Position numbers and translations under genes: made by a program. 8,603 bases of DNA from a virus. Lineage: Duplodnaviria; Heunggongvirae; Uroviricota; Caudoviricetes. Shown here piece after piece: positions 1,610 through 8,603 of the stretch. How positions within the stretch are numbered: the first letter of the stretch is position 1; the number at the start of each line of letters is the position of its first letter. Below the pieces are notes generated by a model. It did no database searches. It was given only the letters and a program-made list of their open reading frames with translations, and was not told the DNA's origin. The DNA is taken from the IMG/VR virus record IMGVR_UViG_2541047905_000009. One strand, 5' to 3'.

Positions 1610-2824
1610 GTGAAACTCAATGCCCGTCAAATAGACACAGCCAAGCCAAAAGAGAAGGCTTACAAGCTGGCCGATGGTGGCGGTTTGTATCTCTTGGTAA
1701 AACCTAATGGAGGTAAATACTGGCGACTTAAATATCGTGTAGATGGTAAAGAGAAGCTATTGGCACTAGGTGTGTATCCTGAGGTTACTCTAGCCGATGC
1801 TCGGGCAAAACGTGAAGATGCGAAAAGAGGTATCGCTGGTGGTATCGATCCGATGGAAGCGAAACGAGAGGAAAAGATTGCCCGGGAAACGCAGTTAAAC
1901 AACACCTTCAAAGATATTGCCCTTGAGTGGCACAGCAGCAAATTAAAAAAATGGTCTGCTGGTTATGCTTCAGACATCCTCGAAGCCTTCAACAAAGATG
2001 TGTTCCCTTACATTGGCAAAAAACCAATCGCCGAAATCAAACCACTTGAACTTCTGAATGTGCTGCGGCGCATCGAGGGGCGCGGTGCTACAGAAAAAGC
2101 CAAAAAAGTGAGGCAGCGGTGCGGGGAAGTTTTCCGCTATGCAATAGTCACTGGTCGCGCAGAGTATAACCCTGCACCAGACCTTACTAGCGCGATGCAA
2201 GGCCATGAATCTAATCATTACCCTTTCCTTACAGCTAAAGAATTACCTGATTTTTTCAAGGCATTGTCCAGTTACTCAGGAAGCGCATTGGTTGTTATGG
2301 CGGCTCGTCTACTGATTATCACCGGCTTGCGGACTGGCGAACTACGTGGCGCATTATGGGATGAAATTGATTTCAACAAGGCTATCTGGGAGATACCCGC
2401 TTCACGTATGAAAATGCGGCGGCCTCATATTGTGCCATTGTCTGATCAGGCTCTTTCGCTTATTGGGAAGATTAGAGAAATAACAGGCAATTACCCTCTT
2501 ATGTTTCCCGGGCGCAATGATCCAAGGAAAACAATGAGTGAGGCCAGCATAAACCAAGTGTTTAAGCGCATTGGCTACGCTGGACGTGTAACTGGTCATG
2601 GGTTCCGGCACACTATGAGTACGATTTTGCATGAGCAGGGCTATAACACCGCGTGGATAGAAACGCAGCTCGCTCACGTTGATAAGAACTCAATTCGTGG
2701 CACATACAACCATGCGCAATATCTGGATGGAAGGCGGGAGATGCTTCAATGGTATGCCGACTATATGGATTCTCTCGAGCATGGCGGAAATGTGGTGCAT
2801 ATGGTGTTTGAAAAACACGCATGA
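1610..2824 (+). CDS. int: site-specific tyrosine integrase, P4-type (N-terminal arm-binding DUF4102-like domain plus catalytic domain), 404 aa, GTG start
   Basis: N-terminus (KLADGGGLYLLVKPNGGKYWRLKYRVDGKEKLLALGVYPEVTLADAR) fits the arm-binding domain of P4-family integrases. C-terminus has GHGFRHT and a catalytic Tyr context (IRGTYNHAQY). GGAGG lies 10 nt upstream of the GTG. Adjacent to the tRNA. Confidence 0.9.
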   Translation: MKLNARQIDTAKPKEKAYKLADGGGLYLLVKPNGGKYWRLKYRVDGKEKLLALGVYPEVTLADARAKREDAKRGIAGGIDPMEAKREEKIARETQLNNTFKDIALEWHSSKLKKWSAGYASDILEAFNKDVFPYIGKKPIAEIKPLELLNVLRRIEGRGATEKAKKVRQRCGEVFRYAIVTGRAEYNPAPDLTSAMQGHESNHYPFLTAKELPDFFKALSSYSGSALVVMAARLLIITGLRTGELRGALWDEIDFNKAIWEIPASRMKMRRPHIVPLSDQALSLIGKIREITGNYPLMFPGRNDPRKTMSEASINQVFKRIGYAGRVTGHGFRHTMSTILHEQGYNTAWIETQLAHVDKNSIRGTYNHAQYLDGRREMLQWYADYMDSLEHGGNVVHMVFEKHA

Positions 2825-2910
2825 AACAACTGGACAAGTATACAGAGGTTTACTAAAGTATAGGGGAGTAGATTGATAAAAACTCACAGAGGATTGCTAT
2901 TTAACAGTTA

Positions 2911-2938
2911 GCCCTGGAGAAGGGCAATCGCTCTTTTA
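2911..2938 (+). terminator. weak candidate intrinsic terminator downstream of int
   Basis: Hairpin GCCCT-GGAGA-AGGGC (2911-2925) followed by a T-rich stretch CTCTTTTAT. The stem is short and the T-run is displaced. Confidence 0.25.
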
Positions 2939-2967
2939 TAAACGAAGGTGTATTGAGCCTTCTACGT

Positions 2968-3033
2968 CGCTGACAAAGCGGAATGTTCTTTAACAGGCTT
3001 TGGCGCTGACAAAGCGCAATTGTTCTTTAAAAC
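2968..3033 (+). repeat. two ~28-bp direct repeats (CGCTGACAAAGCG-N3-TGTTCTTTAA) with 36-bp periodicity in the int-alpA intergenic region
   Basis: CGCTGACAAAGCG at 2968-2980 and 3004-3016, each followed by TGTTCTTTAA. Candidate regulator-binding sites or iterons. Confidence 0.5.
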
Positions 3034-3131
3034 TACTGGATGTCACGCCTAATAGCGTGATCCTGCCGAAATGCAGGGTAGCTCTACCCTTGTGGAGCGA
3101 ACAAACCAAAACAATCTGACTATCTTTTATA

Positions 3132-3166
3132 AAAGACCGCAATATGTTTTTCATATTGTGGTCTTT
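3132..3166. promoter_or_regulatory. 35-bp near-perfect palindrome (AAAGACCGCAATATG-TTTTT-CATATTGTGGTCTTT), candidate operator upstream of alpA
   Basis: 15-bp arms with a single mismatch (G-U compatible as RNA). It lies about 90 bp upstream of the alpA start, with a TTGACG hexamer at 3181-3186. Confidence 0.4.
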
Positions 3167-3252
3167 GGCGTATTCGACATTTGACGCAAATAAAACTCTC
3201 GCCATTCGTTGCAGGAGGGGGTTATTGCGTCATTAGTACAGGATATTAATAA

Positions 3253-3456
3253 ATGGCTAATTACAATTCATTAATTCGTCTCTCTGAAGTTCAAAGGCGA
3301 ACTGGTTATAGCAAAGCATGGATTTATCGTCTTATTAGTCAGGGGAGGTTCCCTAAACAGGTAAAAATTGGAAGTCGGGCAATTGCTTTTGTTGAGTCTG
3401 AAATAGATGAATGGATTGAGAAGTGTATATTAGAATCTAGAGACGAGGTGGCCTGA
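3253..3456 (+). CDS. alpA: AlpA/Vis-family phage transcriptional regulator / excisionase-like HTH protein, 67 aa
   Basis: SLIRLSEVQRRTGYSKAWIYRLISQGRFPKQVKIGSRAIAFVESEIDEWIEK matches the AlpA-family HTH pattern. Its position just downstream of a P4-type int is as in CP4-57-like elements. AGGA lies 11 nt upstream of the ATG. Confidence 0.85.
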   Translation: MANYNSLIRLSEVQRRTGYSKAWIYRLISQGRFPKQVKIGSRAIAFVESEIDEWIEKCILESRDEVA

Positions 3457-3887
3457 TGGAAAAGAAAAACCGCCCATTACAGGCGGCTAATTCAGATATT
3501 CGTGTATCTGATGTTACGCCCCTTACAAAATCCCTTCAAGCACCAAAGCGCACACCGAAAAAGCATCGTGCCAGAGTCTATATGCTGCGTACTGGTATAG
3601 AGGGATGGACAGAAAATGACATTCTTCGCTACTGCCGTCTGTCTTCTGGTCGTAACTATGCAACAGAGTTAGAACGCCAGCTTGGAATCACTCTGGAGCG
3701 TATCGACGAAAAGAATCCTGATGGTATCGGAACACACCTTCGCTACCGTTTCTCCTGCCGTGGTGATGTTCTGAAAGTGATCACTCATATTAACCATCTT
3801 GCGAACATAAATGATCACAACGGACTTTCTCAGCAGGAAATTGCCGACATTCTGAAACTCTACCCGGACGCGTTTAACGCCGCCTAA
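3456..3887 (+). CDS. hypothetical protein, 143 aa, basic N-terminus (possible DNA-binding)
   Basis: ORF whose start overlaps the alpA stop (TGATG), indicating translational coupling. K/R-rich N-terminal 40 residues. No family recognised. Confidence 0.65.
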   Translation: MEKKNRPLQAANSDIRVSDVTPLTKSLQAPKRTPKKHRARVYMLRTGIEGWTENDILRYCRLSSGRNYATELERQLGITLERIDEKNPDGIGTHLRYRFSCRGDVLKVITHINHLANINDHNGLSQQEIADILKLYPDAFNAA

Positions 3888-3899
3888 CGGAGACTGAAA

Positions 3900-4733
3900 A
3901 TGAACATCGAAAAAAGCAGATTAATTTCTGAGGCCGCCCCTCATCTGAACGCCTCTCTGGGCACAATTAACGGTAATGAATTTGCCGCAATTGTCCCGGT
4001 TATTCCAGGTCACATCGGTGGGCGTGAAACCAATATTGTTAGCGCAAAAGCGTTACACAAAGCGTTGGGCGTGGGAAAAGACTTCTCTACATGGATCACT
4101 GATCGCATCTCTGAATATGACTTCACCATTGGGCACGATTACTCAGTCCATAAAACAATTTCCCCAAATTTGGGGAAAAGCCCGAATGGCACGGCTTACA
4201 GCAAGATTAAGCAGTCTGGCAGACCCGGCAAAGACTATCTGTTAAGTGTCGGAATGGCGAAAGAGCTGGCAATGATCGAACGCAATGATCAGGGTCGCGC
4301 TATCCGTCGTTATTTCATCCAGTGCGAGGAAGAATTACAGCGTAGCGTGCCTGAAATCGCCGCCCGCTATCGTCGCCAGCTAAAAGCCCGTATCAGTGCC
4401 GCAAACAACTTTAAGCCAATGTGCGATGCGCTGAATATGGCCCGTGCCGAGCAGGGGAAAACGACGCAGCAACACCACTACACAAACGAGAGCAATATGA
4501 TTTCTCGTATCGTTCTTGGAGGGCTAACTGCTAAGCAGTGGGCGCGGATAAATGGCTATTCTGGCGAACCTCGCGACCATATGAACGCAGAACAGCTTGA
4601 GCACCTCTCATATCTCGAAAGCACCAATATCACGTTAATTGATATGGGCATGGAATATGAGCAGCGCAAAGGAGAACTCACCCGCCTGTCGCAACGCTGG
4701 CTCGCCAAGCGTCTGGAGGCGGTCCATGTTTAA
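3900..4733 (+). CDS. phage antirepressor-like protein (AntA/ORF6N-type N-terminal domain), 277 aa
   Basis: N-terminal region (IGGRETNIVSAKALHKALGVGKDFSTWITDRISEYDF ... KDYLLSVGMAKELAMIERNDQGRAIRRYFIQCEEE) matches the characteristic AntA/Bro-N-type antirepressor signature ending in RRYFIxCE. C-terminal half unassigned. GGAGA lies 8 nt upstream of the ATG. Confidence 0.8.
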   Translation: MNIEKSRLISEAAPHLNASLGTINGNEFAAIVPVIPGHIGGRETNIVSAKALHKALGVGKDFSTWITDRISEYDFTIGHDYSVHKTISPNLGKSPNGTAYSKIKQSGRPGKDYLLSVGMAKELAMIERNDQGRAIRRYFIQCEEELQRSVPEIAARYRRQLKARISAANNFKPMCDALNMARAEQGKTTQQHHYTNESNMISRIVLGGLTAKQWARINGYSGEPRDHMNAEQLEHLSYLESTNITLIDMGMEYEQRKGELTRLSQRWLAKRLEAVHV

Positions 4734-4908
4734 GCCGACAGGAACACCACAACCTCAAAAACGCTACAAAGATGCCCACGGAGCACTCGTTACTGTCGAA
4801 AGCGTGTCTCACAACCGAGTGACGTTTTATCGCGACGGGTATCAATCGCCATGCGTACAACCGCTGGCGCGCTTCATGAAGGAGTTCGCGGAGGTTAACA
4901 AATGCTAA
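4726..4908 (+). CDS. small hypothetical protein, 60 aa ([60 protein letters not shown])
   Basis: ATG at 4726 is preceded by GGAGG (4715-4719) and overlaps the upstream stop (ATGTTTAA). The longer 4639 start in the ORF track lacks an RBS and gives an implausible N-terminus. Confidence 0.6.
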   Translation: MFKPTGTPQPQKRYKDAHGALVTVESVSHNRVTFYRDGYQSPCVQPLARFMKEFAEVNKC

Positions 4909-5930
4909 CCGTCCAGAAGAAGATATTTTCACTGACTGCTATGTCGCAAAAATCCAGCAATATGACAGCAAAGTCTGGCATTAATACAGCAGATACAAGC
5001 AAAGCTTATCATTTTATGGTGGTAGGAGCGGATGCCTTAACTATGTCAGAAATTACGGTCGATGGTGTTAGCGTTGAGAAGGTCAGCGGCTGCGCCAGAG
5101 AATTTCTGGTCGTAGATGACCTGTTCTGCTCGCGTAGTGACTCCACAAAAATCTTCGTCCGCACGCGCGACGTTAACGAAATGAGCGCGATGTACTGTGC
5201 CTCTGGTTCTTCCAATAGTGAGTTTTCGGAGTCCATAAAAAAGAGCTTGCCGTTATGCGGCAACACGGTTTATGGTTATAAGGCACCTCATAAAACGGGT
5301 GCCGGGATTAGGACCCCGCAGGCAATCGAGGCGATACATGACGCGCCAGCGTCTTTTTTTGTATCGGCGCACACGCACACCTTATCAATGGTGGGCTGTA
5401 TGGGGCTGACTTCGGTCAGGCTGGTTTCCTTGATTGCCAGTAGTCCTAACCCTGTACAGTCCACCGCCAGCGAGCTTAGGACCTCCGGCGGTGGCTATAA
5501 ACCATCAATCAAGGAGGCTGCCACATGCTGGCTACTACCCCTACCCAAAAACCGCAATTTATCTGGATTATCGCCGCAGTTCGCCGCGATTGCCCGACAA
5601 TTACCGCCAAAATTCATCATATTGCTGCCGAGTCTGAACGCGATGCTCGCCGTTCTCTGGTGCGCGATCACATCTGCTTTTTTGCTGGTCGTATCCGCAT
5701 GGAGGTGGCACATGATTAAAACCTACGATGTGCATATGGATCCCCTCGAACGCACAAGCCAGATCATCACACTGACAGAAGTGATTAACGACATTCTGGT
5801 GAGCAACTCTCCCTCACGAGACGAAAGACTGAAGGCGTTACTCGCGATATTGGATCTCGCCGTTCGTGACGTTCATTTCCTGCTGGAAGGTGGACAAATG
5901 CCATGCAAAACGGGGGCAACCAATGAATAA
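4902..5930 (+). CDS. uncertain: 342-codon open frame with strong RBS; 5' half plausibly coding, 3' extent unresolved (reads through other RBS-supported genes)
   Basis: ATG at 4902 has GGAGG 7 nt upstream and overlaps the previous stop (ATGCTAA). The frame has no stop until 5930, yet across 5525-5711 it is rich in rare CUA codons while another frame codes well. It contains a terminator-like hairpin. Coding status is ambiguous. Confidence 0.35.
5340..5360 (+). terminator. candidate intrinsic terminator / attenuator (GACGC-GCCA-GCGTC followed by T7)
   Basis: 5-bp GC-rich stem with a 4-nt loop, followed immediately by TTTTTTT (5354-5360), inside the long open frame and about 165 nt upstream of the next RBS. 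Confidence 0.4.
5406..5514 (+). ncRNA. candidate structured RNA / regulatory leader (UUCG-tetraloop hairpin, crossing stems, long-range stem overlapping the SD)
   Basis: Complementary segments read by eye: CTGAC-UUCG-GTCAG (5406-5419); GTCCTAA (5443-5449) with TTAGGAC (5476-5482); CCACCGCC (5461-5468) with GGCGGTGG (5487-5494), crossing the previous pair; CCTTGATTG (5428-5436) with CAATCAAGG (5506-5514), reaching into AAGGAGG. No folding energy was computed. Confidence 0.3.
5525..5719 (+). CDS. small protein, 64 aa, tentatively Icd-like (host cell-division inhibitor family of P4-like elements)
   Basis: Strong SD AAGGAGG 7 nt upstream of the ATG. Codon usage is good in this frame. [21 protein letters not shown]...[13 protein letters not shown] resembles, from memory, the FxW-FAAVRR...FAGR pattern of Icd-like proteins; this family call is low confidence. 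Confidence 0.55.
   Translation: MLATTPTQKPQFIWIIAAVRRDCPTITAKIHHIAAESERDARRSLVRDHICFFAGRIRMEVAHD
5712..5930 (+). CDS. small hypothetical protein, 72 aa (alternative reading: C-terminal part of the 4902 open frame)
   Basis: ATG at 5712 is preceded by GGAGG (5701-5705) and overlaps the stop of the 5525 gene (ATGATTAA). Translation [30 protein letters not shown]... is protein-like. Confidence 0.45.
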   Translation: MIKTYDVHMDPLERTSQIITLTEVINDILVSNSPSRDERLKALLAILDLAVRDVHFLLEGGQMPCKTGATNE

Positions 5931-6117
5931 CTCAATTAATACCCCTCGCCTTACGTCCGCACTTCAATTAATCGAGCAAGCAGCGGCTGTCCTGGTTGCT
6001 GTCAGTCTTTCGGCTGAAGAAATGGACGCTGCTGATGTCGTGGATGCGATTAAAGCGTGCTCATCTTTGGTTAACGATGCCCGTGCCGAGCTGGTAATTC
6101 TTGGGGGTGAAAAATGA
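5923..6117 (+). CDS. small hypothetical acidic protein, 64 aa
   Basis: ATG at 5923 overlaps the upstream stop (ATGAATAA), with a G-rich stretch upstream. The GTG at 5866 in the ORF track lacks an RBS. Confidence 0.55.
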   Translation: MNNSINTPRLTSALQLIEQAAAVLVAVSLSAEEMDAADVVDAIKACSSLVNDARAELVILGGEK

Positions 6118-6377
6118 ATATCAACTTAATTTATCGTCATCCGTGTGAGCTGGAAATTGAATCATTGCTGGGGCGCGAAGAGCCATATCCAGACACATTC
6201 ACTCCCGCAGATTGCGCGACTGAACGGCTTACCAGAGCGCGCACAGGTCTGGTTCATGTGATGAATGAGATTGTTCCCTCGGTGGGAGGGGAACAGGCGA
6301 CAGTAATCAATAGCTGGCTACAAAAAGTTACCTCCCTGATAGATATCGGTTTAATCGATGTGGAGAGTGCGAAATGA
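6114..6377 (+). CDS. small hypothetical protein, 87 aa
   Basis: ATG overlaps the upstream stop (ATGA), with GGGGGTG upstream. Translationally coupled. Confidence 0.6.
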   Translation: MNINLIYRHPCELEIESLLGREEPYPDTFTPADCATERLTRARTGLVHVMNEIVPSVGGEQATVINSWLQKVTSLIDIGLIDVESAK

Positions 6378-6595
6378 CCAACATCCAGCTCATTGAAGCG
6401 CAATGTCGCATCGAACAGGTTCAGACTGTTTTAGGGTTCTGGCTTGAAGGGGCCAGCCCCAGCAACAGAGACAAGTTAATGATTGGCGCGGTTATGTCAC
6501 TGCTCAATGGCGTACCAGAAGCTATTCAGGAAGCGGACGAATTGTTGGGCAAATATGAGTTACAGAATCATTCAGGCGAGGCGAAACATGAATAA
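6374..6595 (+). CDS. small hypothetical protein, 73 aa
   Basis: ATG overlaps the upstream stop (ATGA), with GGAGAG 6 nt upstream. Confidence 0.6.
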   Translation: MTNIQLIEAQCRIEQVQTVLGFWLEGASPSNRDKLMIGAVMSLLNGVPEAIQEADELLGKYELQNHSGEAKHE

Positions 6596-7190
6596 TTTCT
6601 TAACTTTCCATGCAGAAGCAACGCCTGACGGCGTAAACATCATGTACCGCAGCAACGATGGCATGACAGAACGCGTTGAGACCGTCTCATATATTGATGC
6701 CGTAAATCGTCTGGATGCCGGGGATTATGACGATAAACCAGATGAAGGCATGTTTATACATCTCGCTATTGCCAGTGGCGGCAACCAGGGATATTTCGAT
6801 TACACATCACAGCATCACGTGATTATGTGGCGCTGGCTGATAGCAACAGCATTCATCAATGAAATGAGAAAGGAAAACGGCACTGTCAGCATCATTGATG
6901 ATACTGGCAATCCTTCCGAAGTGGCTGTTTATTCCAACGGCATCGTCGCCATGCCGCTGTATCCAGTAGCAGAGCGCCTCGCTATGGCAAACAACATTGA
7001 GGGCGCGATGATAGAACGTTTTGGCATCGAGTCTGGCACAGAACGCGCCATCATTTTCTACAGAGCCATGATGGATGTGGAACAAGGAGCACTGACTCCA
7101 TTTGGTCGTGAAACGCTTGCTGAACTTCACAACAGCTTTATAGCTGAACTGAATGAAAACGGCATGCCAGCGGAACCAGTGACGCACTGA
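6588..7190 (+). CDS. hypothetical protein, 200 aa
   Basis: ATG at 6588 overlaps the upstream stop (ATGAATAA). The 6483 start in the ORF track would overlap the preceding gene by about 110 nt and gives a junk N-terminus. Protein-like composition. Confidence 0.65.
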   Translation: MNNFLTFHAEATPDGVNIMYRSNDGMTERVETVSYIDAVNRLDAGDYDDKPDEGMFIHLAIASGGNQGYFDYTSQHHVIMWRWLIATAFINEMRKENGTVSIIDDTGNPSEVAVYSNGIVAMPLYPVAERLAMANNIEGAMIERFGIESGTERAIIFYRAMMDVEQGALTPFGRETLAELHNSFIAELNENGMPAEPVTH

Positions 7191-7200
7191 GGATGGAGCC

Positions 7201-7542
7201 ATGATTACTAAAAATTTCCGACTGAATGCGCTGGCAAATAAGTATGCGTCAGCACTGTATAACCACATTACCTCCACCAGCGGCGGGGACTATTTCATGA
7301 TTGATGCGGACGGAGAGGCCGTCCGTGTGGAAATCGTCAATGGAGTAAAAGGCGTTCGCAGCCTGATCGATAGTTACGCACTGGCAGCCATGAAAGTGTT
7401 CTACCCGCAGTGGGAAACCGTGGGGATCGAGCTTCTTGATCGTTGCGTCACTAAGGACAGATTGACTGACGTCGGGCGTGAGATATGGCAAAGCATGGTT
7501 AATGACATGGGCGCAACTGTAGCGGGAGGTTCTCATGCGTGA
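7201..7542 (+). CDS. hypothetical protein, 113 aa
   Basis: GAGGA 6 nt upstream of the ATG; 10 nt after the upstream stop. Confidence 0.65.
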   Translation: MITKNFRLNALANKYASALYNHITSTSGGDYFMIDADGEAVRVEIVNGVKGVRSLIDSYALAAMKVFYPQWETVGIELLDRCVTKDRLTDVGREIWQSMVNDMGATVAGGSHA

Positions 7543-7906
7543 AAATGTAGAAATGGCGCTTAGCTCCGCAATCGGAGAGCAGGTGGCAAAGATTGCTGGT
7601 GCTGTGTGGATTCATAACCTTCATTCTACTGGTGAAGAGAAAATGGCAATTCAGACGCCAGAGGGACGCACCATTACTACATCTCTGAAGCCGTCAGATG
7701 TTTGTGATCTGATTTGCGCATTCATGTACCCAGCAATGAGGACTGTCCACGGCGATAAGTGGAAACTTGCGACAACCGCTGAATTTGATATGTGGCTAAA
7801 CAATGATGGCATGCTGACTGATTACGGAATAACCAAGTGGCAGATGCTAGTTAGCCATATCGCAAACGCTATAGACCACGTGGGGTACGGTGATGCGAAA
7901 CATTGA
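7535..7906 (+). CDS. hypothetical protein, 123 aa
   Basis: GGGAGG 5 nt upstream of the ATG; start overlaps the upstream gene by 8 nt. Confidence 0.65.
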   Translation: MRENVEMALSSAIGEQVAKIAGAVWIHNLHSTGEEKMAIQTPEGRTITTSLKPSDVCDLICAFMYPAMRTVHGDKWKLATTAEFDMWLNNDGMLTDYGITKWQMLVSHIANAIDHVGYGDAKH

Positions 7907-8384
7907 TCTTATCCGTCAGGTTATCAGTGCGTCTGAAAACAACTGGCCTCATGTGCTGGGCTGCCTGAACATAAATGTCCCTGACTCTCCGCGCCGTCAT
8001 GCTCCCTGCCCTGCATGTGGGGGCAAAGATCGATTCCGGTTCGATGACAACGGGCGCGGTAGCTTCATCTGTAATCAGTGCGGCGCTGGTGATGGGCTGG
8101 ATTTAATTAAACGCGTAAATAACTGCGACACAACAGAGGCGGCGCTTCTTGCCGCTGATGTTCTGGGTATTGATTACCGGACAACGGAAACACCAGAAGC
8201 CACCAGCCAGAAACGGGAACAACTGGAAACCGAGCGCCAGCGACGCGAACAGGAGCGCCTGAAAAGGGCAGAGAAGGACGAACAACAAAGACGGGATACG
8301 TTTTCCCGTCAGTTTGATGACATGCGCAGAAAGGCTGTAAACGGCAAATCTGATTATCTGGTTGCGAAAGGGGTAGGTGATTGA
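7893..8384 (+). pseudogene. DNA primase (P4 alpha / primase-helicase type), N-terminal zinc-ribbon fragment truncated by IS insertion
   Basis: CPACGGKDRFRFDDNGRGSFICNQCGAGDGLDLIKR is the CxxC...CxxC primase zinc-ribbon motif. The ORF ends after 163 residues (ATG 7893) at a TGA that is the first three bases of the IS terminal repeat (8382-8384). Full-length homologues are several hundred residues. Confidence 0.8.
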
Positions 8385-8603
8385 ACCGCCCCGGGTTTCC
8401 TGGAGAGTATTTTATCTGTGAACTCAGGCTGCCAGATCATCGTTTCCGATGGAAGCATAATAAGCTTTTTCTGCTTCTGCCGGAGGAGTATGGCCCAGCC
8501 TTTCCAGCAATCGTCGATTGTTATACCAGTCCACCCACGTGAGTGTGGCCAGTTCCACTTCTGCACGGTTTTTCCAGCTCTTACGGTGTATTACCTCCGC
8601 TTT
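8382..8603 (-). mobile_element. IS3-family insertion sequence, IS629-like, terminal part (partial; runs off window end)
   Basis: Terminus TGAACCGCCCCGGGTTTCCTGGAGAG recalled as the IS629/IS3411 terminal inverted repeat. An IS3-family transposase C-terminus is encoded on the - strand just inside. Confidence 0.8.
8424..8603 (-). CDS. IS3-family transposase OrfB, C-terminal 59 codons (partial, 5' end beyond window)
   Basis: Reverse-complement translation in frame with the window end: ...KAEVIHRKSWKNRAEVELATLTWVDWYNNRRLLERLGHTPPAEAEKAYYASIGNDDLAA*. This is the typical C-terminal tail of an rve-domain IS3-family transposase. The track ORF at 8354..8566 is in a different frame and is not the real gene. 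Confidence 0.8.
   Translation of the reverse strand, partial: KAEVIHRKSWKNRAEVELATLTWVDWYNNRRLLERLGHTPPAEAEKAYYASIGNDDLAA

Follow-up and report, generated by a model that had tools for sequence, protein, structure and literature searches.

Beyond AlpA, the means by which Gram-negative phage-inducible chromosomal islands (PICIs) detect and exploit their helper phages are still an open question. It bears on antA, a plus-strand gene at positions 3900-4733 of IMG/VR virus record IMGVR_UViG_2541047905_000009 (8,603 nt, analyzed over its whole length and referred to below as the window), which a sequence-only reading had taken for a candidate helper-prophage derepressor, comparable in function to Epsilon of satellite P4. 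The same reading placed the gene on a satellite-like island, and this was borne out by a gene-for-gene match to an experimentally verified PICI, EcCIMP1 of Escherichia coli MP1, which is integrated at thrW (Pick, Stadel & Raivio, ISME J 2025; PMC11773190). Excision, circularisation and transduction of EcCIMP1 require the presence of the P22-like phage Kapi1, and the island's alpA gene is needed for excision and transfer (PMC11773190). For antA itself we arrived at a role other than the one first proposed. Our preferred, still tentative reading is that its product is a Bro-network regulator that forms a dimer, binds DNA and serves the induced phase of the satellite; a role as the trigger of helper derepression is unlikely in view of where the gene lies, which domains it encodes and what deletion of the island did in published work.

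An AntA Head Joined to a Shuffled C-Terminal Module

The antA open reading frame (ORF) runs from an ATG at 3900 to a stop codon at 4731-4733, and a GGAG Shine-Dalgarno sequence lies 9-12 nt before the ATG. With 1827 homologous proteins found at E<=1e-3, the ORF is real far beyond chance. Its RefSeq entry, WP_001673419.1, is labeled 'antA/AntB antirepressor family protein', a label that comes from the head domain and from nothing else in the protein. The Pfam family AntA/AntB (PF08346) matches residues 47-129 over the full model (positions 1-68), scoring 77.7 bits where the cutoff is 27 (E 1e-21), and PHROG Ant families match down to 1e-37. The motif RRYFIQCE occupies residues 136-143 (nt 4305-4328), and R136, Y138 and E143 are conserved or invariant among 20 diverse homologues. 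The initial description of an AntA-type protein of 277 aa with an RRYFIxCE signature was thus confirmed; its further label 'ORF6N-type' was not, as only AntA matches and ORF6N (PF10543) is absent among the whole-protein hits at E<=0.01. An NCBIfam scan returned no match for antA or its neighboring genes. The protein is basic (pI 9.3), and in the AlphaFold2 (AF2) model of its full length (mean predicted local distance difference test score, pLDDT, 81.8) three parts can be distinguished. The N-terminal domain (residues 25-129, nt 3972-4286; delimited by pLDDT, secondary structure and Pfam) consists of a beta-hairpin plus a winged-helix-like AntA domain, with a low-confidence loop at residues 87-106. 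The RRYFIQCE motif sits in a long helix (residues 130-160, nt 4287-4379) that connects this domain to the C-terminus, a helical-bundle domain (residues ~161-277, nt 4380-4730) delimited by a search of representative sequences, AF2 and Foldseek.

The second half of the protein had been called unassigned. This holds as far as Pfam is concerned, since a search with residues 131-277 at E<=10 gave no family, ANT/KilAC (PF03374) included, and only a sub-threshold winged helix-turn-helix (wHTH) match. It does not hold more widely: when both halves were searched, as had been suggested, the head proved to be AntA and the C-terminal half proved to be a recurrent module of its own. It matches phrog_2657 in a PHROG scan, and its residues 165-266, the only part of antA that aligns, match positions 156-259 of the 281-position model of the PADLOC candidate PDC-S22 (E 1e-10), which is an unvalidated, guilt-by-association defense candidate. 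When 1.84 billion representatives were searched exhaustively with HMMER, the domain turned up in 420 clusters, where it is nearly always the C-terminal half of proteins of 210-280 aa. Its N-terminal partners, in 107 proteins scanned, were Rha (46), KilA-N (25), AntA (21), Bro-N (3) and P22_AR_N (1). The helical bundle of ~115 aa is a mobile, shuffled module, and it differs from the KilAC domain of the AntA-family antirepressor-type proteins that we compared or that are described in the literature. Its conserved positions are the basic residues R164, K187, R225, R256 and K257 together with G186, Y194, E197, G208 and L260.

Modeled alone (window 4347-4730), the C-terminal domain reached a pLDDT of 96.6 and a predicted template modeling (TM) score of 0.88. 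We compared the models with the Protein Data Bank (PDB) using Foldseek and found a single significant structure family, DdrC of Deinococcus radiodurans (PDB 7UDI, 8U0G, 7QVB), all other matches having a probability <0.2. The full-length model matched DdrC with E 1e-5 and probability 1.0, collinearly across both domains, and the C-terminal domain by itself matched DdrC chains with TM 0.63-0.70 and a root mean square deviation of 2.6-3.7 Å. In both proteins a long linker helix joins a head of beta-hairpin and wHTH to a tail that is a helical bundle. DdrC is a dimer in which the wHTH N-terminal domain and a domain-swapped four-helix-bundle tail jointly make up DNA-binding grooves, and it compacts and circularises DNA and senses breaks (PMC9303277, PMC11347143). 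At the sequence level the two proteins are 13-18% identical without a profile-level match; searches of PDB chain sequences gave no match with the single antA protein, and none with profiles A2 and A3 at E<=10.

antA Lies Upstream of the Immunity RNA Module

Five plus-strand genes, alpA-orf143-antA-DUF4222-Ash, are chained by overlaps or by a 12-nt gap. The alpA gene (3253-3456, 67 aa; Pfam Phage_AlpA, E 7e-20) encodes a master activator/excisionase-type regulator that is 100% identical to that of EcCIMP1. The start of the conserved gene orf143 (3456-3887, 143 aa, from the ORF list) overlaps the alpA stop by 1 nt; orf143 has no match in Pfam, PHROG, NCBIfam or PADLOC. Downstream of antA, the DUF4222 gene (4726-4908 in the RefSeq coordinates, 60 aa; Pfam PF13973, E 2e-24) overlaps its end by 8 nt, and is followed by an Ash-family, P4 eta-like ORF (4902-5930, 342 aa; Pfam Phage_ASH at residues 124-219). 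That antA is the second gene of the operon is correct when counting begins after AlpA, and in the chain alpA-orf143-antA it is the third. In a scan of the window, no promoter or terminator was predicted between alpA and antA, nor any plus-strand terminator from 3017 to 5340, and the first terminator after alpA is that of isrK (~5340-5360).

By homology, the region between int and alpA (2825-3252) corresponds to the fragment (-449 to +50) that holds the helper-inducible alpA promoter of EcCIMP1. An alpA-lux reporter of EcCIMP1 is active in Kapi1 lysogens treated with mitomycin and not otherwise (PMC11773190). A repeat search of this region found two direct copies of GCTGACAAAGCG-N-AAT-(N)-GTTCTTTAA, at 2969-2994 and 3005-3030, which may be a binding site for a regulator. 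MP1 and another E. coli relative have one copy only of the GCTGACAAAGCG..GTTCTTTAA repeat, and a search of Kapi1, SPN9CC and P4 returned just one chance hit, with one mismatch. A 71-aa ORF on the reverse strand of the same region (2990-3205) may correspond to EcCIMP1_002, which is mis-annotated in databases as UvrB (PMC11773190).

Embedded in the Ash ORF is a complete RNA immunity module of the P4/P1 type, all on the plus strand. It consists of an isrK-type RNA (5283-5359; Rfam RF01394, 63 bits against a gathering threshold of 50) with an intrinsic terminator (stem 5340-5353), a C4/CI-type antisense immunity RNA (5384-5471; Rfam RF01695, 80.2 bits against a threshold of 45, E 6e-15) and, directly after the latter, an icd-like ORF (5525-5719, 64 aa; tblastn to the P4 cI-region ORF, E 3e-7; 'Icd-like' in MP1). 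The end of antA at 4733 lies upstream of all three. The order in P4 is vis(AlpA)-eta/CI RNA-epsilon-orf151-orf106-alpha. In P1 it is c4-icd-ant, with ant downstream of c4-icd. Gifsy-1 has the order isrK-orf45-anrP (PMC4825925). A gene with an epsilon-like role would be expected behind the immunity RNA gate, and antA stands in front of it.

A homologue of epsilon was sought directly. P4 epsilon hits the Pfam family PF25738, 'Derepression', at 9e-51, and neither antA nor any other window ORF scanned matches that family; tblastn with P4 epsilon found nothing in the window. When epsilon, orf151 and orf106 of P4 were compared with the window there was no similarity, and only the P4 cI-region ORF and the alpha primase match. 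The family Phage_ASH (PF10554), which papers on satellite finders have treated as a homologue of P4 epsilon, was rejected as a candidate: checking the P4 ORFs concerned (P4 7888-8175 and 8168-8584), we found that PF10554 matches the ORF of the CI RNA region and that epsilon is PF25738. 'Ash family' annotations on islands are therefore no sign of a helper derepressor.

The Winged-Helix Core Is Exchanged Between Alleles

Where E. coli islands match the window with 97-100% identity in integrase, AlpA, orf143, DUF4222 and the N-terminus of the primase, antA can be only 84% identical and 8 aa shorter (L010, 8001-8810). The differences between these alleles are confined to one block, residues ~57-116 (nt 4068-4247), which is the winged-helix core. 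A swap of such a segment would be expected were the head to determine target specificity. In a further allele (P0091) the first 30 residues and the C-terminus are swapped. The alpA-orf143-antA-DUF4222 block is syntenic even in Citrobacter elements, which differ in integrase and attachment site, and their antA is 74-75% identical to that of the window. orf143 and the DUF4222 gene flank antA in all relatives examined, the Citrobacter elements included, and the three genes may work as a unit. Outside the islands, Edwardsiella phage EPP-1 carries a full-length antA relative (64% identical), and the P22-like Salmonella phage SPN9CC carries a Rha-headed version of the architecture. In these two phages, which were the cases examined, the position of the gene is between the lysis cassette and terS, the terminase gene, or in the equivalent late region.

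Regulator, Antirepressor, Immunity Factor or DNA-Structure Factor

As an induced-phase regulator, antA would be transcribed from the alpA promoter and would, for that reason, be made only once a helper is induced or infecting. The protein would dimerise through its C-terminal bundle and bind DNA, the winged-helix head setting specificity, and would tune transcription or DNA transactions of the satellite, the helper or both during the induced phase. Precedents for such tuning are the AntA domain of AriS, from a Listeria phage, and CapR, a protein of phage-inducible chromosomal island-like elements (PLEs). In this manner antA may contribute to the superinfection immunity that depends on EcCIMP1, and it would not be the trigger that derepresses the helper prophage. 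Several observations weigh against such a role. The P1/P7 Ant1/2 proteins, founders of the AntA family, act as true antirepressors by binding protein (cited in PMC9043618), and an AntA head could accordingly bind a repressor. The likeness of antA to DdrC is one of fold, with no detectable sequence support, and four-helix bundles are common; DdrC itself has a wHTH surface of negative charge and binds DNA without sequence specificity (PMC9303277, PMC11347143). Co-transcription with alpA is deduced from a low-power consensus scan together with homology to EcCIMP1, and the alpA-promoter repeat was not found in Kapi1.

The main competitor is the role first proposed, in which antA is a true antirepressor that inactivates the repressor of a resident helper (CI/C2 of a P22-like or lambdoid phage), as P4 epsilon inactivates the P2 C repressor. 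The family takes its name from the P1/P7 Ant antirepressors (PMC9043618), and with no PF25738 protein among the island ORFs scanned the function, if it exists, is without another owner. The gene is also among the most conserved of EcCIMP1-like elements, and a Kapi1-like prophage was present in only 2 of 21 EcCIMP1 strains, a situation in which activation of a broad range of helpers would be useful (PMC11773190). However, deletion of EcCIMP1 leaves Kapi1 titres after induction and Kapi1 CI-lux unchanged (PMC11773190, Fig. 4B,C), and the island raises rather than lowers the superinfection immunity of Kapi1 lysogens (PMC11773190). The position of antA argues in the same direction, as it stands behind alpA, whose promoter needs a helper that is already induced, and upstream of the C4/isrK gate, downstream of which P4 epsilon, P1 ant and Gifsy-1 anrP are found. 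Kapi1 already has a CI of the LexA-like, self-cleaving (RecA-cleavable) type and an immI antirepressor of its own, made of Bro-N and P22_AR_C domains with Arc/Mnt-type regulators nearby; its other 'anti-repressor' is a Rha and KilAC protein, and no antA homologue was found in Kapi1. The tail of antA, which resembles the DNA-binding dimer DdrC, is neither KilAC/ANT nor P22_AR_C, domains that we found in TP-J34 Ant and the Kapi1 Ant proteins and that have been described for P1/P7 Ant and AriS (PMC9043618). Finally, the AntA domain of AriS acts after induction by lowering the lytic transcription of its own phage, and is no antirepressor (PMC9043618). Taken with the rest, we consider the helper-derepressor idea improbable, and less likely than an induced-phase regulator.

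Two further roles seem more doubtful still. The immunity that EcCIMP1 adds to Kapi1 lysogens, on an island where no known defense system was found (PMC11773190), could come from antA as an interference or defense effector acting on incoming Kapi1 DNA or transcription. Its tail matches PDC-S22, and over-expression of the AriS AntA domain reduced phage replication by ~80% and virions ~10-fold (PMC9043618). That match, however, is limited to the shuffled tail, and PDC-S22 is itself an unvalidated candidate on which a literature search was uninformative; the architecture of antA is common in ordinary temperate phages, P22-like ones included, and little antA expression is expected in uninduced lysogens. 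We regard this role as having only a slim chance of being correct. Slimmer by a little is the prospect that antA is a DdrC-like, non-specific dimer on DNA ends, nicks or duplexes that aids satellite replication, concatemer handling or packaging. DdrC is its only solved structural analogue, matched in both domains and able to compact and circularise DNA, and EcCIMP1 has no identified packaging functions (PMC11773190). Only the fold is shared, though, and the exchange of heads (AntA, Rha, KilA-N, Bro-N) and of winged-helix alleles fits sequence or target specificity better. A bolder proposal spans two of these roles: an AntA head on a DdrC-like bundle would be a new class of satellite effector against the helper, either an antirepressor in which the DdrC-like module takes the place of KilAC or the factor behind the helper-specific superinfection immunity of EcCIMP1. 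As an antirepressor it would induce P22-like or lambdoid prophages in a lysogen that the satellite enters, and if an effector aimed at the helper does exist, the allelic winged-helix swaps would track helper specificity. We think this, too, unlikely.

The Island and Its Remaining Features

The island has the same gene order as EcCIMP1, and most proteins are 95-100% identical to their counterparts, antA 98.2% and the product of the Ash ORF ~82%. It follows proA (1-1254) and is integrated at thrW, a tRNA-Thr (CGT) gene at 1369-1444 on the plus strand (ARAGORN; Rfam tRNA), which contains the att core TCCTATTATC (1428-1437), present once in the window and identical to the core reported for EcCIMP1 (PMC11773190). 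The integrase (1610-2824, plus strand, 404 aa) is a P4-type tyrosine recombinase with the Pfam domains Arm-DNA-bind_3, Phage_int_M and Phage_integrase and 99.5% identity to that of EcCIMP1. The thrW site with its core, the int-alpA-...-primase order and the high identity together place the window among EcCIMP1-like elements. Such islands are common, with at least 80% of the stretch present in 274 of 5426 complete E. coli genomes (~5%).

An intact replication module is what this copy lacks. Behind the Ash ORF, six tightly packed small or unknown plus-strand ORFs (5923-7906; ORF list, RefSeq) are the positional equivalents of P4 epsilon, orf151 and orf106, and lead to a primase-helicase gene of which the N-terminal 164 aa with the zinc ribbon remain (7890-8384, plus strand; Pfam Zn_Ribbon_Prim). 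The intact protein of relatives has 918 aa. Abutting the cut is the end of an element of the IS3 family of insertion sequences (8385-8603, minus strand), recognized from its ORF translation and from the IS3-family transposase annotated on the matching piece of DLI.6n and M15; homology to intact islands ends at ~8382 (match to strain N25). With the primase cut after ~164 of 918 codons, the copy in the window probably cannot replicate. Strain DLI.6n has the same insertion sequence at a point further into the primase gene.

Intact relatives carry downstream genes for P22-type ejection proteins (DUF2824, Inj_translocase, P22 gp16-like/SLT; L001, 21935-27281, and L010, 14838-16810), so the satellite brings along counterparts of its own to the DNA-ejection proteins of the helper. 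The authors of the EcCIMP1 study remarked on the likeness of late-zone genes to genes of Kapi1 (PMC11773190).

Comparison With Known Systems

The type of island and the gene class of antA are already described. Gram-negative PICIs have a 'Bro zone' between alpA and primase that holds domain-swapping Bro-network proteins, AntA proteins among them, and C4/isrK RNAs (PMC10111431). antA has all of these marks: a Bro-network domain (AntA), a place between alpA and primase, adjacent C4/isrK RNAs and swapped domains. That paper describes the class only, giving no function for its AntA members (PMC10111431), and the tail of antA has no Pfam name. The closest counterpart is the 'antirepressor' of EcCIMP1, an annotation label there (PMC11773190), which has the same length, the same position (int-alpA-orf143-antA-DUF4222-Ash...primase) and the same thrW site and att core. 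The elements differ at the primase, which is cut in the window beside the IS3-family element, and at the Ash ORF, which in MP1 is split into a pseudogene and icd and in the window is uninterrupted and of odd composition. A search of a literature library found no tested AntA protein or helper-derepression function of a PICI. The new points are that the shuffled DdrC-like tail has been defined, that antA lies upstream of C4 and that the head is swapped between alleles; the identity of the tail and the position caution against reading 'AntA' as a function.

P4 epsilon, for which a functional analogy to antA was proposed, resembles it only in being a satellite gene of an alpA-to-primase operon. 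It is a protein of 95 aa encoded directly downstream of the CI RNA, with no sequence or domain similarity to antA, and its position in the window is taken by the icd-like ORF and other small ORFs. The P1/P7 Ant1/2 proteins are associated with AntA and ANT/KilAC domains (PMC9043618), and compared with a P1/P7-type Ant (immI), antA has neither the KilAC tail nor the place downstream of C4/icd. TP-J34 Ant of Streptococcus is 33% identical to antA over residues 46-152, including RxYFIQxE, but the homology extends no further than the AntA head, and TP-J34 Ant has a KilAC-like C-terminal half. We therefore rejected it as a two-domain relative of antA, the remainder of the BLAST alignment being spurious.

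AriS is the sole AntA-domain protein that has been dissected (PMC9043618). It was annotated as an 'antirepressor', a label that proved wrong, and its KilAC tail blocks the SOS response; its relatives have AntA, Bro-N or Rha by turns as their head (PMC9043618). It is like antA in joining an AntA head to a separable C-terminal effector under an 'antirepressor' annotation, and unlike it in the kind and activity of its tail and in being phage-encoded, from Firmicutes. DdrC is the structural likeness. The papers on its structure state that homologues outside Deinococcus are lacking (PMC9303277, PMC11347143). In our models it resembles a phage Bro-network protein structurally, which is of possible interest to the Deinococcus field, and DdrC, a chromosomal DNA-damage response protein, may possibly derive from a Bro-network-type protein of a mobile element, the kind of element on which antA resides.

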